Positions 46,749 through 62,007 are shown, counted from the first letter of the stretch. The stretch is DNA of 64,000 nucleotides from Minisyncoccia bacterium (GCA_041750655.1 JBGSYZ010000007.1:41493-105492), one strand, 5' to 3'. Notes: a model not told the origin generated them from the letters alone. A program made the numbers and translations.

Positions 46749-47312
46749 ATGGGTGCCAAGGATTGGACCGAGGAAAAAATCTCTAAATTACAAGAAATGT
46801 GGCTGAACGGAAAGCCCGCTCGGTACATTGCTTCAGAGCTAGGTGCTCCTATTACTCGAAATGCAGTAATAAGTAAAGTAATGGCTCTTGGTATTTATGA
46901 AAAAAGAAGGAGTACCTGTCACTCTCTTTCAGTAAAGCGTGCACCAACTCAAAGACTTGGTGGTCTTAGACCTAAACCAAGGTCTAAAAAAACAAGGTGC
47001 AAAAAAGACCAAGACAAGCCAGACTGTAAAGTGTTGAGGACAGGTCAATTGCTGAATAAGTCTGGTTGGTTAGATGATGATGCGGTTAAACATCGAGTTC
47101 AACAGCTTGAAGGAGAAGCCCTCAAGATACCAGTTGAGAAAAGGTGTGGTGTCATGGATTTGACTGATAACACCTGTCGTTGGTCAATTGGAGACCCAGC
47201 GTCTGAAGAATATTTTTTCTGTGGTAAACCAGTTTGTAAAAAAGCTAATGGAGCACGTTCACCGTACTGTGCCGACCACACAGAAACTGCGTATCATCCC
47301 CAGAAGGTATAG
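46749..47312 (+). CDS. GcrA-like cell-cycle regulator family protein
   Basis: N-terminal WTEEKISKLQEMWLNGKPARYIASELGAPITRNAVISKVMALGI; C-terminal CRWSIGDP...FCG...YC..H matches the GcrA C-terminal domain. Confidence 0.6.
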   Translation: MGAKDWTEEKISKLQEMWLNGKPARYIASELGAPITRNAVISKVMALGIYEKRRSTCHSLSVKRAPTQRLGGLRPKPRSKKTRCKKDQDKPDCKVLRTGQLLNKSGWLDDDAVKHRVQQLEGEALKIPVEKRCGVMDLTDNTCRWSIGDPASEEYFFCGKPVCKKANGARSPYCADHTETAYHPQKV

Positions 47313-47352
47313 ACGTAGTAAAATTGGTAAAATAACGATGTATCGTAGTATG

Positions 47353-47387
47353 AAAAAAGGCGGGCCGACAGGCCCGCCATTTTTATT
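47353..47387. terminator. Bidirectional rho-independent terminator
   Basis: A6-GGCGGGCC-GACA-GGCCCGCC-ATTTTTATT. Confidence 0.75.
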
Positions 47388-48195
47388 CTAGATTTACTTT
47401 TGGTTTCCAGAGAATAAAGTAACTAGTTTTCTTTTGGTACTCTCGATATTCGTCACCATATTTTTCAATAAATATGTTTTCCAGCATCGGGCCAGTAATT
47501 CTGGTTACGATGTAGGTTATTAGCAAAGGAGAAACAAGTCCAACATAGCCATAGGCAAACGGCACCACCATGACAGCCAAACCCCACCACATAAGTGTTT
47601 CGCCAAAATAATTTGGTCGGCGGCTGTATTTAAACAAACCAGTGGTCATGAGATTGGCTTTTTCTAGGCCACTTTTTTTTGCGGCAATAAATTTATCTAG
47701 CTGCCAATCAGCAGTTGTTTCAATGGCAAAACCTACCAACCAAATAATGCATCCACCAATAATAAATCGTATATCAAATGAAAAGGGATTTGCAATCGCC
47801 AGAACAATCGGTAGTGATACTAAAGTAATGATTATTCCTTGTAGTAGGAATACTTGTGCGTAGCTACGAAAAATAAAATACAACATGCCGTTACTCTGCC
47901 ACGCCACCCGCCAGGCGGCATAACGAGCGTCTTCTGGTTGCCCATAATTTTTATGAAATATGCGTAAACAGAGACGGGCTGACCACACGGCAATGAGAGT
48001 ACTTACTATAGTCGGTACTAATCCAAACGCACCGGTTAAGTACACCGTAGTAACGGTGGCAACAAGATAAATCGGACCATAGGCAATATCCATAATACTA
48101 TTGTCTTCACGAGCTATTGCTACAAGAAAAACCGTAGTAACTGAAATAAGCACTACAAAAAAATAAATACCTAAAGTTGTAAGAGCTATCGACAT
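47383..48195 (-). CDS. DUF1295 / steroid-5-alpha-reductase-ICMT-like membrane protein
   Basis: Polytopic; YSRRPNYFGE and C-terminal LENIFIEKYGDEYREY motifs. Confidence 0.55.
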   Translation of the reverse strand: MSIALTTLGIYFFVVLISVTTVFLVAIAREDNSIMDIAYGPIYLVATVTTVYLTGAFGLVPTIVSTLIAVWSARLCLRIFHKNYGQPEDARYAAWRVAWQSNGMLYFIFRSYAQVFLLQGIIITLVSLPIVLAIANPFSFDIRFIIGGCIIWLVGFAIETTADWQLDKFIAAKKSGLEKANLMTTGLFKYSRRPNYFGETLMWWGLAVMVVPFAYGYVGLVSPLLITYIVTRITGPMLENIFIEKYGDEYREYQKKTSYFILWKPKVNLE

Positions 48196-48239
48196 ACGTT
48201 GTAGCTTATATAATAGCAGATGCTACAATATTCTTACGT

Positions 48240-48764
48240 ATGGCCGATGAACCTGTCAAAAAAACCGTAAAGAAACAAACCCGTAAAACCACTACTAAGA
48301 AAGTAGTGGGTAAAGCTGTTACTCCAACAGCAACCAAGGTGGTAACTCCAAAAGCAACCAAGAAAGGTTTGTCATTAAAATTTGTTCTATTTACCATTCT
48401 GGTTTTATTCTTGGCGTCCGGAGGAGCTTTTTACGTAGGGTATTCAGCTGATGGTGCTATTGATGTTAACGAAAAGTTATCAGATGGTTCGACGATGGTT
48501 GAAGGAGCTCAAAATTCAGAAGGAGCCAGCAACACCAATCCACCTCCGTTAAAAGAAAGACCCAAACTTGAACCAGCTAGTGTCGAAACACCAGCGCCAA
48601 CTCCTGAGCCAGAGGTTGAAGGGGTAGCTACCAGTAGTAACGAATCAGCCGAAATCAATGAAGGAGAGAGTAAGGTAGAAAGCGAAACTACAGCACCTGA
48701 AGATGAAGGTGTTATTTCTACCGACGAAGCAGTAGATCCTGCTGAAGAAACACCAACAGAGTAG
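48240..48764 (+). CDS. Lys-rich N-terminus / single TM / acidic C-terminal tail protein (hypothetical)
   Basis: KKxxKK-rich N-terminus, TM helix LKFVLFTILVLFLASGGAFYV, Glu/Thr/Pro-rich tail. Confidence 0.4.
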   Translation: MADEPVKKTVKKQTRKTTTKKVVGKAVTPTATKVVTPKATKKGLSLKFVLFTILVLFLASGGAFYVGYSADGAIDVNEKLSDGSTMVEGAQNSEGASNTNPPPLKERPKLEPASVETPAPTPEPEVEGVATSSNESAEINEGESKVESETTAPEDEGVISTDEAVDPAEETPTE

Positions 48765-48769
48765 GGGGC

Positions 48770-49162
48770 TTATTTCTTTTTCTGTGAACACTTTGTGCAA
48801 CGACAGGGTTGGCAGTGATCTAGCCAATACTCTTGGCCGTAATCATAGGTAATTTCCTCACCATTTTTGATATAGTTCAGGGCTCTGATTAGTATCTTTT
48901 CTTCTTCTTCGTCTATTTCGGCTTCACAATTGGGGTCACATGAATGGTTTATATACCGAGAAGTATTTGAGCGATCTTTACCATCGATAATCCAGTCATC
49001 ATCTAAAGTAAACAGGTACTTGCCGCCCCGCCTATCACCTTCAGCAGTGGTAATTCTCTCTCCAGTGTATTCGATAACCACGGTGTCTGGTTTAATATCT
49101 TCGTGTGCAAACAATCCTAAACCAGCCTTTGAGCGTTTCACTTTTACTTTTGGAAATTTCAT
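48770..49162 (-). CDS. SET-domain protein (putative protein-lysine methyltransferase); track ORF extends to 49192
   Basis: GLGLFA...EYTGE...NTSRYINHSCDPNC...GEEITYDYG plus post-SET Cys cluster (CQPCRCTKC). Confidence 0.7.
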   Translation of the reverse strand: MKFPKVKVKRSKAGLGLFAHEDIKPDTVVIEYTGERITTAEGDRRGGKYLFTLDDDWIIDGKDRSNTSRYINHSCDPNCEAEIDEEEEKILIRALNYIKNGEEITYDYGQEYWLDHCQPCRCTKCSQKKK

Positions 49163-49220
49163 AACGATTATTTTTACCAGGATACATAGCATTTTACAAA
49201 TGTGATGTGGGATAACAAAA

Positions 49221-49264: not shown

Positions 49265-49951
49265 CTATCGATTGTTGGCTAATTGTTCAGTCAATAATTT
49301 GATAAGAAGTTGCAGTAACTCACGAAGTTGCATTTGTAGTTCTGCTTGATCTGTACTTCGACCGTAGTCTCGATATTTTTCATCAAGTCGATCACGGTCA
49401 CGATCTCTATCACGGTCTTGATCCCTGTCTTCATCACAGTCTCCCTCTCGGTCACCGTGGGCAATGTGGGCCTGTACGGCTGATTGGGCTACTTCGATAG
49501 TTCGACCGTCATGACAAAGTTGACGTTTCCGGTCGTCTTCTCGACTATCGTCACTATCGTCGCTATCGTTATCCATTTCTTCATCATCTGTACTAGCCAG
49601 CTTAGCGGCTGCTTTGTCAGCAATTTCGGTAGCACTTTGAGCTTTTTCTTTAGCGTTGGCATACTTTTCATCATCGAAATCATCTATAGCGTTGGCCAAC
49701 TTTTCTTTTGCTTTGCTCAATTCTTCCTCGGCATCATTTATAGTACTGGTTGCAGCCTCACTATTATCAATATCAGACTCTAGGTTTTCAATAGCGTCTT
49801 CAGCATCATTGATAGCATCAGTTGCCTGTCCTTCTGTAACAGTTGCAGCATAGGCCATATTAGCCAAACCAAAACTCATGAATATAGCGAATACTGCAGA
49901 AAATAATACCGGCAAGACTACTCTCAGGTTTATTTCTAATGTCTTTGTCAT
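49265..49951 (-). CDS. Secreted acidic protein with (DR)n repeat (hypothetical)
   Basis: Signal peptide ...ANMAYAATV; Asp/Glu-rich; DRDQDRDRDRDRDR tract. Confidence 0.4.
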   Translation of the reverse strand: MTKTLEINLRVVLPVLFSAVFAIFMSFGLANMAYAATVTEGQATDAINDAEDAIENLESDIDNSEAATSTINDAEEELSKAKEKLANAIDDFDDEKYANAKEKAQSATEIADKAAAKLASTDDEEMDNDSDDSDDSREDDRKRQLCHDGRTIEVAQSAVQAHIAHGDREGDCDEDRDQDRDRDRDRDRLDEKYRDYGRSTDQAELQMQLRELLQLLIKLLTEQLANNR

Positions 49952-50467
49952 AAATAATATTGTTAATTATAAATTTTATCTTTTAATACCACCCATCATG
50001 CAGTATTGGAAAATCCAAACTCAATCAAGTGTACTATAAAAATGATGACGTTGGGTAAACACTTAAGTTACATAAAATTTGTACTCTTGTGTAAAGCTAT
50101 TGTTAAATAAAATTATTGTATTGCAACTACACTGTTCGAGTTTTTATACTATCTAAAATCAGCCTTTACGCATGACTTTTACACAGACTTATTCACTCGT
50201 TATACACAGCTATACGATTATATGGCTAGCTATATAAACCAATTAAGACTCTCTACTTACATAGCCTTGTGTAGATAAAGTCAAGGCAAAATTGACAGTA
50301 GTTTTTTGTAGGAGTACCGTCAATATACAGACCACGATTGATGGGCGTGGTAGCTAAAAAAAGGGGATTACCACTTAACTCGGTCGGCCTGGTCTTAGGT
50401 CGCCTTTTTGGCGTTTAGTTTATTAGGGGTATTTATCAAATAATACTTATTTAACATTTAACAAATT

Positions 50468-52036
50468 ATGACGAGTTCAATTAATTACACAAAAATCATC
50501 ATGAGCGTGGGCATGATTGCCTTCGTCGCTGCTCTGGTGGTTGGAGCGACCGGTGCGTTCTTTAGTGACTCCGAAACTTCAACTGGTAACGTGTTTACCG
50601 CTGGAGCGATTAATCTCACTGTAGATAGTGAACAGCATTACAACAATGCAGTTTGTAATGACAATATTTGGGTACTAACAGGTCCTGCTGAGAATCCACA
50701 ATATCCAATCCCGGGCACACCTTGTTCAGGAACGTGGGCAGCTACTGATTTAGGCGCACAAACATTCTTCAATTTCACTGACGTGAAGCCTGGTGATGAA
50801 GGTGAGAACACTATCTCACTACATGTAGACAGCAACGATGCTTACGCTTGTGTGGATGTGACTCTCACTAAAAACGATGACGTCAGTACAGTATCCCCAG
50901 AGTTAGATGCTGGTGACACTCCAAATACCGGTAGTCTGTTTGACGGTGAGCTAGCACAGAATATGACTTTCTTTGCGTGGGCTGACAATGGTAAGGATAT
51001 TACTGGCGCTACAGTTGGTATAGAAGGTGACAATATTTGGCAAGCTGGTGAAGTGCCTTTATTCTCAAACGTTTCTGGTCCTGCTAGCGATGTGCTAGAT
51101 GGTGAAAGCTACACTCTTGCTGACAGCAGCACTGGTGCTTTGCCGGGTGGTGTAACAAGCTACATTGGACTAGCCTGGTGTGCGGGAACAATCGACGCTT
51201 CTGTACCGGGAACCATTACTTGTGACGGTGGCACTATGGGTAACATTGCTCAAACTGACTCTATGGAAGCCACTATTGCTTTCCGAATTGAACAAGCTCG
51301 AAATAACGAGAACTTTGAGTGTGGAGATATTCTGGGTGCTAATACTGATGTGGCAGTTAACACCAACGAAGTGTTTTCTCAAACTGATCGTGCGGCTGCA
51401 GCAGCCGCTGGAAATTGGTTCTTCTACAATGACACCAATGACACAATCATGACAGTTGATGAATTCAGTGGTACAGCCGGCCTAAACCACATGGACACAA
51501 TTGGTGGTTCAGTCGGTGCATATATGAAGCTTGGTACAGAGACAAATCCTCGTTATAACATTGCAACCTATCAGTTTGGTTCAATACCACTTGCTTCGAT
51601 TGGTACATTGAAATACCGAGTGTACGACGCAACTAGTGACGGCGATCAACCATTTATGAATATTGATGTAGACTTTGCGACTACTTCGATTTCTGGATAT
51701 CAAAATCGTCTTATCTACGTACCAGGTGCCTCAACAAATCCGGCACTAGCGGTGAGCACGTGGACTGACATTGATACATTGAGTGGTATGTGGGGATGGT
51801 CTGGTTATGCAAAAGGACCAGATAAAATTGCAACCACTTTAGACGACAATAGTTGGCCAGATGGTAATACGAATGAATACCGTACTTGGGGCGACATAGT
51901 AGCGTCATTCCCTAGTGCAACTATTTTCCCTAGTGGATTCTTGGGTGTTCGCGTAGGCGAGCCAGGACCTGCAGCAGCAGAGGGTTATATAGATTGGATA
52001 GAGTTTGACGGTGTCAAATACGACTTCCAAAACTAG
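50468..52036 (+). CDS. TasA/camelysin-like secreted protein with SipW-cognate-type signal peptide (paralogue 1)
   Basis: N-terminal TM helix then GAFFSDSETSTGNVFTAGAINLTVD and FFNFTDVKPGDEGENTISLHV (resembles the TasA/CalY N-terminal signature). Confidence 0.6.
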   Translation: MTSSINYTKIIMSVGMIAFVAALVVGATGAFFSDSETSTGNVFTAGAINLTVDSEQHYNNAVCNDNIWVLTGPAENPQYPIPGTPCSGTWAATDLGAQTFFNFTDVKPGDEGENTISLHVDSNDAYACVDVTLTKNDDVSTVSPELDAGDTPNTGSLFDGELAQNMTFFAWADNGKDITGATVGIEGDNIWQAGEVPLFSNVSGPASDVLDGESYTLADSSTGALPGGVTSYIGLAWCAGTIDASVPGTITCDGGTMGNIAQTDSMEATIAFRIEQARNNENFECGDILGANTDVAVNTNEVFSQTDRAAAAAAGNWFFYNDTNDTIMTVDEFSGTAGLNHMDTIGGSVGAYMKLGTETNPRYNIATYQFGSIPLASIGTLKYRVYDATSDGDQPFMNIDVDFATTSISGYQNRLIYVPGASTNPALAVSTWTDIDTLSGMWGWSGYAKGPDKIATTLDDNSWPDGNTNEYRTWGDIVASFPSATIFPSGFLGVRVGEPGPAAAEGYIDWIEFDGVKYDFQN

Positions 52037-52130
52037 TTTTCTCTAGCCGTACAAAACCTCAGCTTGGCTGGGGTTTTGCGGGCTGGCCGGGAACAGGACA
52101 GCGTCTTATCACTATCTAAATATTTATATT

Positions 52131-53771
52131 ATGCAGCGCATTATTTTAAGTCTTATGCTTATCGTGGGAGTGGCTGGGGCACTCACTTACGGAGCGACTA
52201 ACGCCTTCTTTAGCGACACTGAGAGTTCAGTCGGTAACACATTTGCCGCTGGAGCGATTGACCTCAAAGTCGATAACGAAAGTTACTACAACGGTGTTCT
52301 CAATGCGTCTACTACGTGGGAGCAAACAGATTTAACAATCGAAAAATTTTTTGATTTTCTTGATTTGAAACCCACCGACTATGGTGAAGATACTATCTCG
52401 CTTCACGTAGCTACCAACGACGCGTATCTGTGTGCCAATGTGACGCTCACGAGTAATGATGACAATGGTATCAATGAACCAGAATCTGAAGTCGATCAAA
52501 CTGATGGTCCGGGTAATGGCGAACTCGCTGACCTCGTAAATTTCCTCTGGTGGGCTGACGATGGCGATAATGTGCTTGAGGAGGATGAGACAGTGATCAC
52601 TCAAGGTAATCTTGGCCAACTCGGTGTCGGTAATTCCTACCCACTGGCACTGGCTGATAGTGATGAAAATATTTGGACTGGAGAGGGTGGCCCTGTTCCC
52701 GGCAACGAAACCCTTTATATCGGCAAGGCGTGGTGCTTTGGTGATATTGCTCCCGCCCCGCTCGCACAAGATGATGAAAATGATGCTATGTCACCAGCCG
52801 GTGATAATAACAACAATGCTACTGCGGGTGAACCAGAAGACGGTGGTATCACCTGTGACGGCACACAGTTGGGCAACGAAAGTCAGACCGACTCACTGAC
52901 AGCGGACGTTTCTTTCTTCGCTGTACAAGCGCGACACAATGATGGTTTCCAGTGTGATTTTCCTCAGGGTCCGCGCACTACTTTGACTCTCGTAAAGCAG
53001 GTACTTAATGGTGAAGCTACTGTCGCTGATTGGACTCTTTCAGCCGCTGGCCCAACTCCACTGACTGGTATTTCTGGCACTGTTGATGTAACCGGTGTGT
53101 CAGTAACTCCCGGCACGTACGACCTTTCAGAATTAGGTATTGACGGTGAGTATTTAGCTTCCAACTGGTCATGTACTGGTGGTAATCAAACCGATTTTGA
53201 CACTATTGAAATTAGTGAGGGTGACAATGTGGAGTGTCGTATTTCCAACTACTTAGTATGTGATCCATCTCAGGCTTACGCTGATCATGTGGTGACCTCT
53301 AGTCAGGCGTTACGAAAGAATGGTACTGCAGTTCTGCCAGAGCGTTCTAATGCTAGCTCAAGTCTTGGTGCTCCAGAAAGTAGTGGCTTGCCAAGTGACC
53401 CAGCGGTAGCGGCCGGCACCTTCTTTAGTCTTGGGTTTGGCGGCTCTATAGTGGTGGAATTCTTGAACAACTACATAGTGGATGGACCTGGCCCTGACCT
53501 ACAAGTGTGGGAAGTAACTGGTGGAGTATATCCGGACGAGTTGATTCAGCTTGACGCAAGTAAAGATGGAGTGACTTGGTTCCCAATTGGCACTGGTCTA
53601 ACTCGTGACGCGCAGACTGACTTAGCACTGTCCGGACTGTCATGGGCGCGTTATATTCGACTAACCGATATATCTAATCCGGGCGATTTCGCAGATGCTA
53701 CTGCTGATGGCTACGACCTCGATGCCTTCAGCGCGCTCAACTGTGCTGATAGAACCCTTATTCCAGACTAG
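52131..53771 (+). CDS. TasA/camelysin-like secreted protein (paralogue 2) with C-terminal prealbumin-fold-like domain
   Basis: NAFFSDTESSVGNTFAAGAIDLKVD, FFDFLDLKPTDYGEDTISLHV; later TLVKQVLNG...GTYDLSE...GY...WSC (Cna-B/prealbumin-like pattern). Confidence 0.6.
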   Translation: MQRIILSLMLIVGVAGALTYGATNAFFSDTESSVGNTFAAGAIDLKVDNESYYNGVLNASTTWEQTDLTIEKFFDFLDLKPTDYGEDTISLHVATNDAYLCANVTLTSNDDNGINEPESEVDQTDGPGNGELADLVNFLWWADDGDNVLEEDETVITQGNLGQLGVGNSYPLALADSDENIWTGEGGPVPGNETLYIGKAWCFGDIAPAPLAQDDENDAMSPAGDNNNNATAGEPEDGGITCDGTQLGNESQTDSLTADVSFFAVQARHNDGFQCDFPQGPRTTLTLVKQVLNGEATVADWTLSAAGPTPLTGISGTVDVTGVSVTPGTYDLSELGIDGEYLASNWSCTGGNQTDFDTIEISEGDNVECRISNYLVCDPSQAYADHVVTSSQALRKNGTAVLPERSNASSSLGAPESSGLPSDPAVAAGTFFSLGFGGSIVVEFLNNYIVDGPGPDLQVWEVTGGVYPDELIQLDASKDGVTWFPIGTGLTRDAQTDLALSGLSWARYIRLTDISNPGDFADATADGYDLDAFSALNCADRTLIPD

Positions 53772-53808
53772 TAGTAAAAAATTCAGTGGTTGAAGTCATT
53801 AAAAACTC

Positions 53809-54741
53809 ATGTCTAAATACCAACGTTCACAAATAAAAATCGTAATTCTGGCAGTTTTTGTGCTGTTGGTTGGTGTATTAGTGGTGCGTGGAGAAACAGT
53901 TGGTTCAACATTTGCGACTGGCTCAGGAACTGGTGGTCTGGAGTTACAGATAGACAGCAGGACTTACTACAATGGTGTTTTGCAACCGAAATTGTCTTGG
54001 GGATTGAAAAACTTAAAACCATGGAGTGATCGTTTCTTCAAATTTGAAGATGTAAAACCAGGGGACACCGGTACGACCACCATCAGTATTCACATTAAGA
54101 AAAACCCGGCCTGGGTGTGTTTAGATTTTCAAAATCTAAAAGACAAAGAGAACGGTGAAAATGAACCAGAATCATATGAAGATGGTAATGACGGAGGCGA
54201 GCTCTCAAAAGAGCTTGAATTCTTTGCGTGGCGTGATGATGGCGACAATATCTTTGAAGTTGGAGAAAAACCCCTCTTTGGAACCAGTAGCCAATCAGCT
54301 AAAGAGGTTTTAAAAGGGAAATCGTATGCTATTGCTGATAGTACACATGGTCCGGCTCAAGCATCTAATCAAACCAAATACGTGGGAATCAATTGGTGTG
54401 CCGGAGATTTGTCAGTCAATGTCGCGACTGCTGAAATTACGTGTGATGCGGAAGCGATGGGCAATGAAGCCCAAACTGATTCAATGACACTTGATGTTTC
54501 ACTGCGGGCGGTCGCATCTAAACAACAGTCAAAGTTTAAGTGTGTGATGGATGACGAAGGTGAACATCATGGTGGACCAAAAGGTGATCATGATGACGAT
54601 GATGAAGACGATAATCACAACGATGACGATGATGACACTTCATGGCACCACGGTGGGTCAAAAGATAATGCTTGGAATAAGACAAAAAATTACTGCAAGA
54701 ACGCGTGGCAGAAAGTAAAAAATTATAAAAGACATTCATGA
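53809..54741 (+). CDS. TasA/camelysin-like secreted protein (paralogue 3, divergent N-terminus, His/Asp-rich tail)
   Basis: FFKFEDVKPGDTGTTTISIHI and overall collinearity with paralogues 1-2; C-terminal HHGGPKGDHDDDDEDDNHNDDDDD. Confidence 0.5.
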   Translation: MSKYQRSQIKIVILAVFVLLVGVLVVRGETVGSTFATGSGTGGLELQIDSRTYYNGVLQPKLSWGLKNLKPWSDRFFKFEDVKPGDTGTTTISIHIKKNPAWVCLDFQNLKDKENGENEPESYEDGNDGGELSKELEFFAWRDDGDNIFEVGEKPLFGTSSQSAKEVLKGKSYAIADSTHGPAQASNQTKYVGINWCAGDLSVNVATAEITCDAEAMGNEAQTDSMTLDVSLRAVASKQQSKFKCVMDDEGEHHGGPKGDHDDDDEDDNHNDDDDDTSWHHGGSKDNAWNKTKNYCKNAWQKVKNYKRHS

Positions 54742-56291
54742 AGTATATTTTTTACATTATAAATAGTATTTTTGTTCTGCTGATGCTAGCGGTAGCCGGT
54801 TTGTTCTTGGTACCTCTTTTACCAATTGAGCACAATTTGGAACTCAAGATTGTGGAGTCGGGCTCGATGGAGCCAGCGATTATGACCGGGTCACTGGTGG
54901 CTATTTGGCCAGCGACCCACTATGGAGTAGGTGATATCATTACGTTTAAAAGTAAAAGTTCTGAGGTACCTACTACTCACCGTATAGCCAATATTTATGA
55001 AGAGAATGGTCAGACCTGGTTTATTACTAAAGGTGACGCCAACGAAGAAGCTGACTCACAAGCCACAGCAGCTACAGATGTTATCGGTTCAGTCAAAGTA
55101 GCTGTTCCGTACGCTGGCTTTATATTAGATTTTGCTCGTCAGCCGATTGGATTCGCGTTTCTCATTTTATTACCAGCCTTGATGCTTATCTTGAGTGAGG
55201 TAGGGAAAATCTGGTCAGAGATTAAAAAACGAAAAAATACCGAAGCAGCTAGTTCTGCTGAAGTTGAAACAAAGTCAGTTGTCGCTGAAAAAGTAGAACC
55301 AAAACTCGCTTCAAATTCGACTGCTCGTCCAATGATGGATATTTCAACTCCAACTCGTTTTTATGTTTTACCGACATTAGATTTGCGGGGACTGACTCCC
55401 TATCCACGAAGTCAATCGCTCGCGCTTAACCAAAAACCGCCTTCTCGTTGGTTTATTTTGCCTGGCGTTTTCTTGTTTTGTGCCACTGTTATTGGTTCAG
55501 GTTTTCTTGGCTCGACCGTTTCGTATTTTAACGACATTGAGCGCAGCGTTGGTAATGGGCTTCGAGCCATCTCGCTTGATTTTACTGTATTGCCTGACGG
55601 AGAACAGTATAGTTTTGAGAACGGTGAATTACTGGCTGATGATGATGGTGCCTTAGTAACAGTGGTTACTCCAGAGCCCGGCAGTGTGTCCATGCGCTAC
55701 GATGTTTCAGTGGAAGTTACTGGTGGTAACGCACTGTTTTGTGATGCAATTAGTGCTTCGTCCGTTAGTCCGGTTTTGTACAGTGGTTCGCTCTCGGCCC
55801 TTAATGCTAATGATATTTTGTTTGATACTCCGTGGCCTCTCGCACTATCGTTACCTGATAGCACCGGTTTCTTTAATGGTGAAATGTGCTCCCTCGATAT
55901 AATCTTCACTGCTTGGCATTACGATGTTGCGACCGATCAAGGCTACTTTGATGAAGAGCGGGCGCCACTTTCGTTTGAACTAATTTTACCGAACGTCGCT
56001 CCACAACAGTTGCTGATTACTTCGTTTGATGTTGCCACTGACACACCGACTAGCACTCCCGAAACAAAAGCCAGCTCTACCATAGCTCTACCACCAGTAT
56101 TGGATGAAGTAGACAACGCATCACGCACCGAGAATAAACTTGCAGGTGTCGAAACTGAAGCTGTGTTAGAGCCAGAAGTTACACAATCTGATGAAGAGAC
56201 TGAAAAAACTCCTGTTACAGAGAGTGAGGTGGAAAGTACCGACGATGTACACGTGGTTGAAGATGATGTGCAACCAGAAATAGTTGAATAA
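54738..56291 (+). CDS. SipW/Sec11-type (archaeal/ER-type) signal peptidase I fused to a C-terminal TasA-like domain
   Basis: ESGSMEPAIMTGSLV (catalytic Ser box), TTHRIANI (His box), ITKGDANEEAD; then a second TM segment followed by STVSYFNDIERSVGNGLRAISLDFTV (SipW-cognate-like motif) and an acidic tail. Confidence 0.6.
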   Translation: MKYIFYIINSIFVLLMLAVAGLFLVPLLPIEHNLELKIVESGSMEPAIMTGSLVAIWPATHYGVGDIITFKSKSSEVPTTHRIANIYEENGQTWFITKGDANEEADSQATAATDVIGSVKVAVPYAGFILDFARQPIGFAFLILLPALMLILSEVGKIWSEIKKRKNTEAASSAEVETKSVVAEKVEPKLASNSTARPMMDISTPTRFYVLPTLDLRGLTPYPRSQSLALNQKPPSRWFILPGVFLFCATVIGSGFLGSTVSYFNDIERSVGNGLRAISLDFTVLPDGEQYSFENGELLADDDGALVTVVTPEPGSVSMRYDVSVEVTGGNALFCDAISASSVSPVLYSGSLSALNANDILFDTPWPLALSLPDSTGFFNGEMCSLDIIFTAWHYDVATDQGYFDEERAPLSFELILPNVAPQQLLITSFDVATDTPTSTPETKASSTIALPPVLDEVDNASRTENKLAGVETEAVLEPEVTQSDEETEKTPVTESEVESTDDVHVVEDDVQPEIVE

Positions 56292-56319
56292 ATTTTAATA
56301 AAGAGAGAATAGTAAATTA

Positions 56320-56350
56320 AGTCACGGATACCAGTCCGTGACTTTTGATA
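56320..56350 (+). terminator. Rho-independent terminator after the fibre/peptidase module
   Basis: AGTCACGGA-TACCAG-TCCGTGACT followed by TTTGAT. Confidence 0.6.
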
Positions 56351-56394
56351 TGAGCAGTGTTCTTATTGACATAGGGTAGGGGGTACCCTATAAT

Positions 56395-56655
56395 ATGCCT
56401 ATGCAAGAAGATAGAAAAAAAATAATCGACCACATAAGTCGTCTGGAAGGACAGCTTGCTTCAGTAAAATCAGAGCTTTCGCTTGATAATCCAGATTGTG
56501 AAAAAGCTAGTCAAACCCTCCAATCAGCTGCTCGCTCTTTTGCTGGTCTTCGTGAACAGTTTGTTGAAACATTTTTACTAACCCATTTTATAAACAGTAA
56601 AAAAATTAAAAACCAGAGATTATTTAATCAGCTTATTGCCTTAATAAAAAGTTAA
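56395..56655 (+). CDS. CsoR/RcnR/CstR-family metal/persulfide-sensing repressor
   Basis: LSRLEGQLASVKSEL...PDCEK...ARSFAGLREQFVETFL matches DUF156/CsoR helices with a conserved Cys. Confidence 0.6.
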   Translation: MPMQEDRKKIIDHISRLEGQLASVKSELSLDNPDCEKASQTLQSAARSFAGLREQFVETFLLTHFINSKKIKNQRLFNQLIALIKS

Positions 56656-56658
56656 CTT

Positions 56659-57180
56659 ATGAAACATGTTGATGTACATACCTTTAAAGAGGTGGTTGAA
56701 GCCGAGCGTGATAACGAGACTGTTGATTTTATTAATGTGTGCACGCCAGCTGAATATAAAGAAAAACATATTCCAGGCGTAAGAAACGTACCACTTGATG
56801 AGATTGAAAAGAGAGCTGGTGAGTTTGCTAACAAGAAAACACTCTATATTCACTGCCGCAGTGGTAACCGTGGCCGTCAGGCGATGGAAAAATTAGCTAA
56901 GCTTGGCGTAACGGCCGAACTAGTTAATGTTGAAGGAGGAATTATAGCTTGGGATCAAGCGGGATTTGTAACCGACTCACTGACAAATAGAATTCCCATT
57001 ATGCGACAAGTTTTAATCGCAGCTGGTGGTTTGATACTACTCGGGTATGTTCTGTCAGTATCTGTGTTCGATCAATTTATCTTTCTTAGTGTTTTTGTGG
57101 GGGCAGGTTTAATGTTTGCTGGTATAAGTGGTTGGTGTGGAATGTCGTACGTACTCGCTAAAATGCCCTGGAATAAATAA
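56659..57180 (+). CDS. Rhodanese-domain protein with C-terminal DUF2892-like membrane segment (YgaP-like)
   Basis: Active-site loop YIHCRSGNRGRQA; C-terminal two hydrophobic helices. Confidence 0.6.
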   Translation: MKHVDVHTFKEVVEAERDNETVDFINVCTPAEYKEKHIPGVRNVPLDEIEKRAGEFANKKTLYIHCRSGNRGRQAMEKLAKLGVTAELVNVEGGIIAWDQAGFVTDSLTNRIPIMRQVLIAAGGLILLGYVLSVSVFDQFIFLSVFVGAGLMFAGISGWCGMSYVLAKMPWNK

Positions 57181-57202
57181 TTAATAAATTAAAAAATAAA
57201 TT

Positions 57203-58012
57203 ATGCGCTATCTCATTGGACTACTAGGGCTCATTGCTCTTTCAATTGGAGTTTGGAACTTTGGTGGTGAAGAATTAGAAGAAAAACAGCAAAATCAATT
57301 TAAGGTTGAGTCTCAAAAAAATGAAGATTTAGTTGACGAACTGGAAAACTATCAGGTGACTGCAGCTGATTTTGTGAATGCTGATGAGCTCATATCGAAT
57401 GAAGTGACAAATGAACTGTCACAAACTGAAATCGAAGGACTTAAGTATATGCGGGAAGAGGAAAAACTGGCTAGAGACGTTTACTTGGCTTTGTACGAAT
57501 ACTGGAACATTCCTATCTTTAACAATATTGCCGGAAGCGAATCCACCCACATGTCAGCCGTGCTTACATTATTGGAAAAATACAATTTAACCGATCCAGC
57601 TAGTGATAAAAGAGGGGAATTTACAAACAACGACCTTCAAGCTCTCTACAATCAACTAGTAGCTGAAGGTAAAAAAACAAAAGCAGCCGCTTTCACTGTT
57701 GGGGCTAAAATTGAAGATTTAGATATCCGCGATTTGGAAGAAAATATTAATGCGACAGATAATCAGGATATTCGCATTGTCTATGAATCTTTACAACGCG
57801 GATCAAGAAATCATCTCCGGGCCTTCAATCGCCAGTTGATAAACGAAACTGGTACTAACTATGAACCAGAGTTCATGTCAGTCGAAGAGTTTAACGCTCT
57901 TATCTCTACTGGGGTTGAGAAAGGTAATGTACAAGGCCAAGGCAATCAAGGGAGTTTTGAAGGAGGTCAAAATAGAAACTCTGGACAGGGGCAAGGTACT
58001 GGTAGCAGATAG
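57203..58012 (+). CDS. DUF2202 (ferritin-like) secreted protein
   Basis: Signal peptide; YMREEEKLARDVYLALYEYW...NIAGSESTHMSAVLTLLEKY matches the DUF2202 pattern. Confidence 0.5.
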   Translation: MRYLIGLLGLIALSIGVWNFGGEELEEKQQNQFKVESQKNEDLVDELENYQVTAADFVNADELISNEVTNELSQTEIEGLKYMREEEKLARDVYLALYEYWNIPIFNNIAGSESTHMSAVLTLLEKYNLTDPASDKRGEFTNNDLQALYNQLVAEGKKTKAAAFTVGAKIEDLDIRDLEENINATDNQDIRIVYESLQRGSRNHLRAFNRQLINETGTNYEPEFMSVEEFNALISTGVEKGNVQGQGNQGSFEGGQNRNSGQGQGTGSR

Positions 58013-58034
58013 GGTAGACATTAATCTTTTATCT

Positions 58035-58961
58035 ATGACAGACAAAATTAACTATCAAAAATATTTAGCGTATAAGCCAGAAGTGCAGGGTTTCTTCGAT
58101 GGACGAACCAATACTATCAGTTACGTAGTAGCCAATCCGGAAACCAAAAAGTGCGCCATTATCGATAGCGTGATGGATTACGAACCACACAGTGCCACCA
58201 TTTTCTTTGAAAATGCTGATGCAATTGTGAAGTATGTAAAAAATAAGGGTTATGAAGTGGAGTGGATTTTGGAAACCCATGTTCATGCTGACCACCTTTC
58301 GGCCGCACCGTACTTAAAAGAAAAATTAGGCGGTACTATGGCCATCGGTAAGTACATAGTCGATGTGCAAAATATCTTCGGCAAAGTCTTCAATGAAGGA
58401 ACTGAGTTTGAGCGCGATGGTAGTCAGTTTGATCGGCTGTGGAATGATGGTGACACGTTTACTCTAGGTAATATTACAGCGAGTGTCATCCACACTCCCG
58501 GCCATACTCCTGCTGATATGGTCTATGTCATTGGCGATGCTGTCTTTGCTGGGGATACTATGTTTATGCCAGACTTTGGGACAGCTCGATGTGATTTCCC
58601 CGGCGGAAGCGCTGAAACGCTATATGAATCCACTCAAAAAATATTTGCCCTACCTGAAGAGATGAGGATGTTCATGTGCCACGACTACTTACCAGAAGGA
58701 CGAACTGAATATGTTTGGGAGACAACAGTTGGTGAGCAGAAGAAAAATAATATTCACCTCAAAGAGGGAACAGACCCTGAACGATTCAAGTCTATGCGCG
58801 ATGAACGCGACGCGAAGCTCGGTATGCCTAAACTCATCATTCCATCAATTCAGGTAAATATGCGGGCCGGCAATATACCTAAAGAAAAAGAGACAGGAAA
58901 CATGATGCTAAAGATGCCAGTTAATAGTGTGTTTTCTAAGCAGCCAACAAATAAGTCTTAG
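58035..58961 (+). CDS. MBL-fold hydrolase, persulfide dioxygenase (ETHE1/Blh)-like
   Basis: ATG 58035 (MTDKINYQKY) in frame with track ORF 57861; ETHVHADHLSAAPYLKEKLGG metal-binding motif. Confidence 0.55.
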   Translation: MTDKINYQKYLAYKPEVQGFFDGRTNTISYVVANPETKKCAIIDSVMDYEPHSATIFFENADAIVKYVKNKGYEVEWILETHVHADHLSAAPYLKEKLGGTMAIGKYIVDVQNIFGKVFNEGTEFERDGSQFDRLWNDGDTFTLGNITASVIHTPGHTPADMVYVIGDAVFAGDTMFMPDFGTARCDFPGGSAETLYESTQKIFALPEEMRMFMCHDYLPEGRTEYVWETTVGEQKKNNIHLKEGTDPERFKSMRDERDAKLGMPKLIIPSIQVNMRAGNIPKEKETGNMMLKMPVNSVFSKQPTNKS

Positions 58962-61614: not shown

Positions 61615-62007
61615 TGGTGGAGATGGTGGAAATCGAATCCACGTCCGAGAATGGTCACACATATGATTCTTCAATGCATAGCTACACTTTTAAGTTTTAA
61701 TATGATGATAGGAAGTGTAGCCAAAGCTCACCATATCTAGTTCGTACATCTCGGTTTCCTAGCCGAACAGTTTAGGATTCCGCAGTCTCATTTTTATTCC
61801 ACCCCACGCCACTTATGAGACTTCAGTGGGTGAAGCGTCGCTCCGGCCGGCGTTATTTACGCGAAAGCGGGTGCGAATCCAAACGCGTTAGCGTACGGAC
61901 TTGGTACAGATTTGTTTGCATCTATACGTGGTTGCCTTTTAACGAATGGCGACCAATTTCGACATTGCACATATGTATGGGTCAAACCGTCGATGCCTGT
62001 CATCCCC
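61615..62007 (-). ncRNA. ssrA: tmRNA (transfer-messenger RNA), 393 nt, one-piece
   Basis: 5' GGGGAUGACAGGCAUCGACGG... and 3' ...GGACGUGGAUUCGAUUUCCACCAUCUCCACCA (T-arm, acceptor, CCA); G3-U70 wobble in the acceptor stem; tag ORF GCA AAC ... TAA (61857..61919) after UAGAU encodes ANKSVPSPYANAFGFAPAFA; terminator ACCACCC...GGGTGGT plus U-run downstream; smpB upstream. Confidence 0.8.

Follow-up and report, generated by a model that had tools for sequence, protein, structure and literature searches.

We consider it reasonably probable that the operon described here, from a Paceibacteria-type CPR bacterium, is a self-contained TasA-superfamily surface-fibre module working by donor-strand complementation, and from its sequences and predicted structures it most likely makes a protein fibre of the TasA type with adhesin-like domains. 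The operon lies in a window of 64,000 nucleotides (the whole stretch of DNA that was analysed) and consists of four same-strand open reading frames, P1-P4, at exactly the coordinates given in a preliminary description of this DNA. The same four-gene module is kept across the genomes of hundreds of ultra-small Patescibacteria (CPR). Its features are as follows.

49952-50467, no strand assigned: AT-rich divergent intergenic region 5' of the operon, presumed promoter and 5' UTR
50468-52036, + strand: P1, 522 aa, proposed class A fibre subunit
N-terminus of P1, + strand: signal peptide
50555-50626, + strand: conserved N-terminal arm of P1, AFFSDSETSTGNVFTAGAINLTVDS
50606-51352, + strand: TasA-like jelly-roll core of P1 (aa ~47-295)
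51353-52033, + strand: C-terminal lectin/CBM-like jelly-roll of P1 (aa 296-522)
52052-52078, + strand: strong stem-loop in the P1-P2 gap, from the fold of 52037-52130
52131-53771, + strand: P2, 546 aa, proposed class A fibre subunit
N-terminal part of P2, + strand: signal and N-terminal arm, then the core (aa ~45-280)
52977-53243, + strand: SpaA_2 prealbumin-like domain of P2 (aa 283-371, PF19403)
53244-53768, + strand: C-terminal domain of P2 (aa 372-546)
53809-54741, + strand: P3, 310 aa, class B subunit
54559-54738, + strand: Asp/His-rich tail of P3 with a basic terminus (aa 251-310)
54738-56291, + strand: P4, 517 aa, SipW-like peptidase with a C-terminal extension
54738-55232, + strand: N-terminal S26B signal peptidase of P4 (TM1, catalytic domain, TM2; aa 1-165)
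within 55233-55505, + strand: P4 linker, predicted cytoplasmic, with a conserved 'RPMMDI' (aa 166-236)
within 55233-55505, + strand: third TM helix of P4, an internal signal-anchor and a helix in the AF2 model (aa 237-256)
55512-55583, + strand: second SipW-type cleavage/donor-strand motif, STVSYFNDIERSVGNGLRAISLDF, in P4 (aa 259-282)
within 55584-56291, + strand: Ig-like beta-sandwich of P4C, the second half of P4 (aa 283-425)
within 55584-56291, + strand: disordered acidic Glu/Thr/Pro/Val-rich tail of P4C (aa 428-517)
56319-56344, no strand assigned: terminator-like hairpin closing the operon, a GC-rich stem of 11 bp and then UUUUG

P1-P3 are indeed paralogues, with 34-37% identity across a common core of ~285 aa (37% for P2 versus P1), and a family HMM recovers all three (P1 E 6e-131, P2 E 1e-66, P3 E 2e-71). 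Each of them carries the block 'FFxFxD(V/L)KPxDxGxxTIS(L/I)H'. The mature portions are highly acidic (pI ~4.05, D+E 13-19%), as are the secreted matrix proteins of the TasA superfamily. The C-terminal domains vary strongly across the family. The prealbumin-like domain previously noticed in P2 corresponds to SpaA_2 (PF19403, 80.1 bits against a cut-off of 25, E 1.9e-22, profile positions 4-96 of 96), and the C-terminal domain that follows it gave no match in a Pfam search and has no similarity to the C-terminal domain of P1.

The first reading of the locus, as TasA/camelysin-like genes accompanied by an S26B peptidase, agrees with the HMM searches and with the predicted jelly-roll fold, and none of the outcomes named beforehand as refuting it came about. 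The core profile aligns with the TasA-family profile: hhalign of the core alignment against 117 TasA-family sequences gave Prob 97.1 and E 5.8e-11 (P1 6-125 / TasA 3-80), a span that takes in the signal together with the donor strand and with the 'KPGD' ('NLKPGD...') strand pair. When the N-termini were removed, the KPGD strand alone aligned with TasA with Prob 16, and the P1-P3 family profile matched no PDB sequence, TasA included. The likeness is thus confined to the first ~120 residues, i.e., the N-terminal third, and to the generic jelly-roll fold, the core being a predicted jelly-roll beta-sandwich that resembles the fold of TasA. As TasA homologues in Patescibacteria were noted as early as 2022, the locus is a variant rather than the first of its kind.

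The best conserved stretch of the family is the N-terminal arm at residues 28-53 (0.88 versus 0.56 for the remaining core), with the nearly invariant consensus FFSD-T/S-E-T-S-x-G-N-x-F-x-A-G-A-I-D-L. It aligns with the TasA donor strand, including the key aromatic and acidic positions, which are critical in known donor strands (TasA F29; AbpX W2 and E4); TasA lacking residues 28-38 has been used as a donor-strand mutant in a comparison of pellicle phenotypes (PMC9674648). The AF2 monomer model leaves the arm unstructured while the domains are confident, which, together with its top conservation, suggests that the arm acts as a functional element of the mature protein, beyond a mere export signal. 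Only P1 and P2 pass the TIGR04088 model of the SipW-cognate signal (23.3 and 21.9 bits, cut-off 19).

P4 contains the SGSMEP, TTHRI and KGDANEE boxes and was rightly assigned to the archaeal/ER-type S26B peptidases: it scores 110.3 bits on TIGR02228 (cut-off 51.85), and a profile search retrieved human SEC11C (E 6e-14) and SEC11A (E 6e-13). The candidate catalytic residues S43, H81 and D100/D106 are intact and invariant in 75 homologues. Against NF046067, the Bacillus SipW equivalog model, P4 gave 114.2 bits, below the cut-off of 190; by its sequence it is SipW-like in role and type and no SipW equivalog. The preliminary description had treated P4 as a peptidase alone, which proved incomplete, as residues 166-517 form a conserved extension that comprises a TM helix of its own, another motif of the SipW type and a beta-sandwich. 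The linker and the third TM helix are conserved in the homologue alignment, and we infer the cytoplasmic location of the linker from the basic residues that follow TM2 and precede TM3.

What P4C has in common with the core family is limited to the TM-plus-arm module; its Ig-like fold differs and is complete in the AF2 model. Residues T260, Y263, D266, E268, N273, A277 and F282 of the internal motif are at least 90% conserved, and the segment aa 259-282 has a pLDDT <50 and is therefore not packed on the domain. Among the related loci, P4C is fused to sipW in 41 and encoded by the next gene, often overlapping, in 31, so that it is fused to or directly 3' of sipW in at least 72. As it is a separate gene in those 31 loci, we read P4C as a TapA-like component and propose, by analogy, that it is the fibre initiator; in TapA, too, the arm belongs to a protein whose Ig-like fold is different and complete (PMC10151520). 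Alternatively, P4C could be a permanent, uncleaved accessory of the peptidase that aids substrate recognition, comparable to the DUF5305/TafG of archaeal loci (Tafi and AbpX) or to eukaryotic SPC22/23, in which case the remaining fibre model may still hold. We regard this as unlikely, if still a serious contender. Fusions of SPase I to an accessory with an extracellular beta-sandwich have been described in TasA-superfamily loci (bioRxiv 10.64898/2026.01.04.697558), and the internal motif scores 13.6 bits on TIGR04088, under the cut-off of 19, which leaves self-cleavage of P4 uncertain. However, the P4 extension has no Pfam match at E up to 10, DUF5305 included, and DUF5305 consists of two TM helices together with an alpha/beta domain on the cytoplasmic side, whereas P4C combines a single TM helix with a beta-sandwich and an acidic tail. 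Moreover, the motif after TM3 aligns by hhalign with the cleavage/donor-strand module of the substrates (core-family N-terminus, Prob 95.7, E 9.4e-9; TasA N-terminus, Prob 74, E 2.7e-5). In the 31 loci with a separate gene, P4C is an independent pre-protein that has an N-terminal TM helix of its own as well as this motif, and in this it resembles a substrate.

P3 has the TM helix and core of P1 and P2 and lacks the AFFSD-E-S donor-strand segment. The motif A-x-F-S-D-x-E-x-S-x-G-N, formerly ascribed to all three paralogues, is accordingly present in P1 and P2 only, P3 reading '...VVRGETVGSTFATGSGTGGLELQIDS', and P3 matched neither TIGR04088 (up to E 10) nor PF12389. Of 81 related loci, 55 have precisely one donor-strand-less (class B) gene, which in 52 of these stands immediately 5' of sipW. 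The Asp/His-rich tail reported for P3, a putative metal-binding element, exists (D+E 25%, H 12%), and it varies among orthologues, being common to close relatives only. From its sequence, we propose that P3 is a fibre terminator or anchor. P3 may itself be cleaved at the small-residue site V-R-G|E, which makes a membrane-anchored version tentative.

These N-termini also bear on the view that P1-P3 are monomeric surface or secreted adhesins, or glycan-binders, which share a SipW-type signal and a scaffold, form no fibre, and are served by the peptidase as a dedicated export processor. The limitation of TasA likeness to the N-terminal third would fit, as would the highly variable C-terminal domains, which are typical of surface adhesins, and polymerisation of P1-P3 is itself an inference. 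Yet the ~25 residues past the predicted cleavage site are the very ones that are best conserved and align with the donor strand, a variant without just that segment is retained as a single copy per locus, and P4C, with a different fold, bears this arm as well and is linked to the peptidase. An arm serving for export alone hardly explains this combination, and we judge monomeric adhesins to be rather improbable. A reading of P1-P3 as metalloproteases of the camelysin type (MEROPS M73), with SipW serving their export, is suggested by the name of the matching Pfam family (PF12389, Peptidase_M73, 'camelysin metallo-endopeptidase') and is very remote, as the match in P1 (23.9 bits, threshold 22.5; P2 stays below at 20.7) covers only profile positions 5-50 of 196, the ~50 residues of the signal and first strand, HExxH is absent from P1, P2, P3 and P4, and TasA and CalY, the type members, are now regarded as fibre subunits.

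The donor-strand fibre that we favour might be assembled as follows. Sec would insert all four proteins, and the S26B domain of P4 would cut P1 and P2 within 'A-FFSD' or immediately ahead of it and so expose the arm. The peptidase would probably also sever its own C-terminal half at a site between TM3 and 'SYFNDIE', releasing P4C as an already complete Ig-like domain that bears the same kind of arm. Like TapA, P4C could then fill the groove of the first P1/P2 subunit with its arm and so start the fibre, after which each P1/P2 subunit would donate its arm to the next. As P3 keeps the acceptor core and lacks the donor segment, it could only be added last and would end the fibre, probably holding it at the cell via its N-terminal helix or basic C-terminus. 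From every subunit an extra domain would project, lectin/CBM-like in P1 and prealbumin-like in P2, giving a fibre adhesive to, for example, a host cell or surface; a bulky C-terminal domain on each subunit might interfere with TasA-like packing. It is tempting to speculate, and we do so tentatively, that Paceibacteria possess a complete chaperone-free fibre line of four to six genes, in which a self-cutting peptidase frees the initiator where the subunits emerge, payload subunits donate strands (possibly triggered by Ca2+) and a single donor-less subunit terminates and anchors the fibre. If true, this would be a polyvalent adhesive organelle with which ultra-small episymbionts grip hosts or surfaces, and, alongside type IV pili, a second major appendage of CPR bacteria.

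The closest point of comparison is the tapA-sipW-tasA operon of Bacillus subtilis (PDB 8AUR, 5OF1/5OF2), in which an S26B SipW-type peptidase gene likewise lies beside its substrates. There, tapA and sipW overlap, whereas here the TapA-like part and sipW are fused; the order is also reversed, in that the subunit genes come first and the TapA-like part follows sipW or lies within it, and there are two to four subunit paralogues per locus instead of one. Compared with TasA, the core is longer (~250 aa versus ~210 aa) and has four invariant Cys that TasA lacks, and the subunits add C-terminal lectin-like or prealbumin-like domains. The donor-strand-less P3 has no Bacillus counterpart, and the globular domain of P4C is not demonstrably homologous to TapA (PDB 6HQC).

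Other archaeal and bacterial TasA-superfamily systems comprise the AbpA/AbpB bundling pili, AbpX and Tafi (TafE/TafA pilins, TafC tip, TafF membrane anchor, TafD peptidase and TafG/DUF5305). Their loci, as we propose for the one described here, join major and minor subunits with a tip or initiator protein, with an anchor that consists of one TM helix and a jelly-roll, and with a dedicated signal peptidase I. The mature proteins are acidic in both (pI ~4), and our subunits share the aromatic-2 and acidic-4 donor-strand positions with AbpX. In contrast, the present lineage is Patescibacteria, the core subfamily is different, the DUF5305 partner is absent and predicted export is by Sec instead of Tat. 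AbpX-linked peptidases have 10 TM helices and P4 has 2 (+1), and we did not find a fusion of an initiator-like protein to the peptidase, as seen here, described for those systems. Chaperone-usher pili, with tip-first assembly and a PapH-type terminator/anchor, would offer a functional analogy; they are evolutionarily unrelated, and the present module has no chaperone, usher or outer membrane. Streptococcus pyogenes SipA is catalytically inactive and serves sortase-linked pili, whereas P4 retains Ser, His and Asp and no sortase is conserved across the loci studied here. This SipA/LepA protein (PDB 4N31) is described as a signal peptidase homologue without which pili do not polymerise.

The CPR origin suspected from the sequence is supported by the homologues, since every named one and all 80 related loci belong to Patescibacteria. 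In nearly all of these 80 loci the TasA-like genes precede sipW, so that gene order is conserved. The loci also show three classes of N-terminus and both fusion and fission of P4C. Across 81 loci, no neighbouring gene beyond the module is conserved in more than 14, which indicates that the module is self-sufficient.

Within the operon, the P3 stop codon overlaps the P4 start (ATGA). The 516-nt spacer at 49952-50467 is as AT-rich as first described, with a GC content of 32% against 43% (0.433) in the window, which ranks among the lowest 0.2% for segments of 516 nt. It matched no Rfam family, showed only weak sigma-70-like matches and contains a terminator-like hairpin at 50385-50402. The fold of 52037-52130 has a dG of -31 kcal/mol (z -3.4; 0 of 200 shuffles as stable), and its stem-loop is possibly an attenuator or mRNA stabiliser 3' of the first subunit gene. 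The hairpin closing the operon has a dG of -20 kcal/mol (z -3.9), again with none of 200 shuffles as stable.

Four consecutive genes had been proposed at 50468-56291, and four co-oriented open reading frames (ORFs) do span this interval, encoding three TasA-like paralogues (P1-P3) and a SipW-like S26B signal peptidase fused to a further C-terminal part, P4C:

50468-52036, forward strand: P1, ORF of 522 aa
52131-53771, forward strand: P2, ORF of 546 aa
53809-54741, forward strand: P3, ORF of 310 aa
54738-56291, forward strand: P4, ORF of 517 aa

The start of P4 overlaps the stop codon of P3 (ATGA), and a strong terminator-like hairpin follows the operon on its 3' side (56319-56344, z -3.9). Between P1 and P2 lies a perfect 12-bp stem-loop (52052-52078; spacer dG -31 kcal/mol, z -3.4), which, by analogy with pilin operons, may set a higher ratio of P1 to P2, P3 and P4. 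The divergent 5' spacer (49952-50467) is as AT-rich as first described, with a GC content of 0.32 (0.433 in the whole window), which places it in the bottom 0.2% of windows of its length. It contains, some 60 nt ahead of P1, a terminator-like hairpin and then a T-run (50385-50410), the folding energy of which is not significant (z -1.6); as the spacer including this hairpin also gave no Rfam match, we do not propose a riboswitch or leader. The genes on either side of the operon are unrelated. The spacer is shared with a divergent gene (49265-49951, reverse strand) for a 228-aa protein with an N-terminal hydrophobic helix, an (Asp-Arg)n repeat and acidic regions that look helical by eye; this protein has no Pfam match and is not kept beside the module in other loci. 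Upstream, at 46749-49192, three genes that are unusual as neighbours in a reduced genome encode a homologue of GcrA-like cell-cycle regulators (PF07750, E 2e-27), a membrane protein of the DUF1295/steroid-reductase-like type and a small protein with a SET domain.

P1-P3 share 34-37% identity across a core domain of ~285 aa with, among its invariant features, the block FFxFxD(V/L)KPxDxGxxTIS(L/I)H and four cysteines; all three are recovered by the family HMM (E 6e-131, 1e-66 and 2e-71, respectively). The A-x-F-S-D-x-E motif attributed to all three paralogues holds for P1 and P2, which score 23.3 and 21.9 bits on TIGR04088, the model of the SipW-cognate signal (cut-off 19), but not for P3, which matches neither TIGR04088 nor PF12389 even at E up to 10 and reads RGETVGSTFATGSGTGGLELQIDS after its TM helix. 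The putative N-terminal donor-strand segment (AFFSD..., hereafter the arm) is the most conserved stretch of the protein (0.88 versus 0.56 for the remaining core). In the confident AlphaFold2 model of P1 (pLDDT 86.8), two beta-domains are predicted and residues 18-45, comprising the signal end and the arm, are unstructured, leaving the arm unpacked in the monomer. After the core, P1 carries a 227-aa C-terminal domain, and P2 the expected prealbumin-like domain (SpaA_2, E 1.9e-22) plus an unassigned 175-aa C-terminal domain; BLASTP shows no relation between the P1 and P2 domains, and neither the isolated C-terminal domains of P1, P2 and P4 nor P3 gave a usable Pfam match at E up to 10. Once mature, the proteins would be very acidic (pI ~4.05), as are other secreted TasA-superfamily proteins. 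The JGI label 'ribosomally synthesized peptide' was rejected, these being folded, multi-domain proteins of 300-550 aa.

The relation to TasA was assessed by comparing the CPR core profile with a profile of 117 TasA/CalY-family proteins, retrieved with a B. subtilis TasA sequence that is 99% identical to the database entry. The two profiles align with a Prob of 97.1% (E 5.8e-11) over P1 6-125 and TasA 3-80, taking in the signal peptide, the donor strand and the 'NLKPGD...' strands, with TasA A28-F29-N-D aligned to P1 F31-F32-S-D. When the N-termini were removed, nothing but the KPGD strand aligned (Prob 16). As a search of the whole-family sequence profile against all PDB sequences was empty at E up to 10, the homology is shown by profile-profile comparison. 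On these sequence profiles and predicted folds, the core belongs to the TasA superfamily as a divergent and enlarged member, and not as a close TasA/camelysin orthologue.

P4 is a signal peptidase, as the preliminary description had it, although its fused second half was overlooked there. It fails the Bacillus SipW equivalog (114 bits, cut-off 190), and an alignment of homologues shows that its other 350 residues are also conserved, with the following parts:

After TM2: basic stretch, then a linker with an 'RPMMDI' motif, seen by conservation
aa 237-256: third TM helix (TM3)
After the third TM helix: second SipW-type motif, STVSYFNDIERSVGNGLRAISLDF
aa 283-425: Ig-like beta-sandwich, predicted very confidently (pLDDT 94-98)
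C-terminal: disordered acidic tail

Aligned to the core-family N-terminus, the TM-plus-motif module gives a Prob of 95.7% (E 9.4e-9); aligned to that of TasA, it gives a Prob of 74%. P4C had been considered as a shortened form of the core, but neither BLASTP nor hhalign relates its sandwich to the core, and this reading was abandoned. In its logic P4C is an exact match for TapA, a complete Ig domain that bears a TasA-like strand at its N-terminus and sets off TasA filaments (PMC9674648, PMC10151520).

We then scanned one genome per species and obtained 404 stretches with a P4 relative, of which the best 80 are all from Patescibacteria, including Nomura-, Kaiser-, Zambryski-, Taylor-, Yonath- and Adlerbacteria, Paceibacterota and Minisyncoccia. 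Searching all ORFs of these loci with HMMs built in this analysis bore out the conservation of gene order: in almost every locus, two to four core-family genes on the same strand lie directly upstream of the peptidase gene, sipW. Three classes of N-terminus were found:

Class A (P1/P2-type), 140 genes: ...GaTGAFFSDTETStGNtFtAGaIDL
Class B (P3-type), 59 genes: ...rg...G.TFATgg.dLkIDS, without the AFFSDTETS segment
Class C (P4C-type), 62 genes: T.SYF.D.E.S.gN.l.Ag.LdF

The commonest architecture is A-A-B-S(+C), S being the peptidase. Class B occurs in 55 of 81 loci, never in more than one copy, and directly before sipW in 52. Class C is fused to sipW in 41 loci and is the next gene after it in 31, where it encodes a pre-protein that stands alone and has a TM helix of its own. 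When the flanking ORFs of the 81 loci were clustered to find further conserved partners, such as a sortase, a glycosyltransferase or regulators, no cluster occurred in more than 14 loci, and the top ones were antisense shadow ORFs. Among 1.84 billion representatives, the core without its N-terminus retrieved 1,120 clusters at 50% identity (E up to 1e-3), or 839 at E up to 1e-10.

The C-terminal domains vary widely across loci, as do the P3 tails. An Asp/His-rich tail was therefore rejected as a hallmark of P3; it is common to close relatives only. Many P3-type proteins (L014, L028, L030, L041, L056, L058 and L063) carry a recurring Cys-flanked domain of ~110 aa after the core, with the pattern 'CSPGYWKQSQHFGNW.APYTP...NALGRQTVAALLNA...CPL', and those of other loci have Asn/Thr/Ser/Gly-rich tails ending '...NIINQIRLLIGR'. 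In some loci the free-standing P4C-type gene is very large, encoding 829-1,279 aa (L061 8525-12364, L077 8506-11433, L066 8545-11034), with extra domains after the arm, one of which, in L061, is lectin/LamG-like by eye; such proteins would be consistent with adhesins at the fibre tip.

The initial observation holds for the most part: it is wrong in one detail, the motif of P3, and leaves out one important point, the fusion in P4. Its interpretation as a TasA-like, SipW-dependent fibre or adhesin system is supported by the family models, the comparison of profiles, the predicted folds and a strongly conserved gene order. Fusions of signal peptidases to accessory subunits exist in other TasA-type loci (bioRxiv 10.64898/2026.01.04.697558), and P4C could likewise be an uncleaved accessory subunit of the peptidase, similar to DUF5305/TafG; we consider this unlikely, since P4 has no DUF5305 match in Pfam, its topology is unlike that of DUF5305/TafG and the free-standing P4C genes resemble substrates. 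That P1-P3 are monomeric surface adhesins with merely a common export signal is consistent with their variable domains, yet seems rather improbable to us, as it leaves unexplained the conservation of the arm after the cleavage site, the single arm-less paralogue per locus and the presence of an arm on another fold that is coupled to the peptidase. A metalloprotease function, suggested by the name of Pfam Peptidase_M73, is highly implausible: the name is historical, the PF12389 match (P1 23.9 bits; P2 20.7 bits, below threshold) is restricted to the N-terminus, namely profile positions 5-50 covering the signal and first strand, and P1-P4 contain no HExxH motif.

From the paralogue, TasA, P4 and comparative results together, we infer a fibre mechanism with cleavage, donor-strand polymerisation and distinct subunit roles. 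The peptidase would cleave the signal peptides off P1 and P2 and probably also cut its own C-terminal half after TM3. The arms freed in this way would engage in donor-strand complementation of the TasA kind, for which the strong conservation of the arm, its unpacked state in the P1 monomer model and the acidity of the mature parts are indirect support. P4C, whose fold is complete and which bears an arm, would act as a TapA-like initiator, and P1 and P2 would polymerise, displaying lectin-like and prealbumin-like domains. P3 keeps the acceptor core and lacks the segment equivalent to TasA 28-38, which was removed in a tested TasA donor-strand mutant (PMC9674648), and could therefore only join last; it would end the fibre and possibly anchor it, being either cleaved at a candidate V-R-G|E site or kept in the membrane. 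In this it resembles TafF, the proposed membrane anchor of archaeal Tafi, composed of one TM helix and a jelly roll, and, at the level of concept, the terminator subunits of chaperone-usher pili.

Patescibacteria account for a large share of the diversity of bacteria, and an attached life on other cells appears to be the rule for most of them; to our knowledge, type IV pili are almost the only kind of attachment machinery known in them. The module is small, self-contained and widespread (~404 species-level genomes with a P4 relative, ~1,100 core clusters at 50% identity), and represents a concrete, testable candidate for a second attachment or matrix structure. Its donor-strand-less subunit and peptidase-initiator fusion are natural 'experiments' on donor-strand assembly, and its proteins, soluble acidic beta-domains, could be expressed and tested without culturing the organism. 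Bacillus, AbpA/AbpX and Tafi loci already show this general plan, in which major and minor subunits are combined with a tip, an anchor and a dedicated peptidase, and NCBI annotates some relatives as 'SipW-dependent-type signal peptide-containing protein'. Our literature search found no paper on the CPR system itself, the sole mention being a report of TasA homologues in Patescibacteria from Pfam PF12389 counts (Wang et al., 2022, PMC9245690). Within the searched literature, we did not find described the enlarged Cys-containing core, the per-subunit payload domains, a paralogue without donor strand kept once per locus, or a peptidase and an initiator-like protein that are fused in some loci and split in others. 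The module extends the TasA superfamily to Patescibacteria, a lineage not mentioned in a RefSeq-based survey (bioRxiv 10.64898/2026.01.04.697558).

Elsewhere in the window, the stretch 56366-56655 has a perfect sigma-70 consensus (TTGACA-17-TATAAT, 12/12) that overlaps the GC-rich palindrome ATAGGGTAGGGGGTACCCTAT, both directly before a CsoR/RcnR-type repressor gene (PF02583), an arrangement that looks like an autoregulated operator. The annotated repressor ATG immediately follows the -10 box, pointing to either a leaderless mRNA or a start at the second ATG. Downstream, at 56659-58961, are genes for a rhodanese that has a TM domain like that of YgaP, a ferritin-like protein (DUF2202) and a protein of the MBL fold; with the repressor they may form, in this CPR genome, an operon of the CstR/CsoR type for sulfur/persulfide or metal stress. 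A tmRNA gene lies at 61615-62007 on the reverse strand (Rfam, 111 bits), with the ARAGORN tag peptide ANKSVPSPYANAFGFAPAFA.
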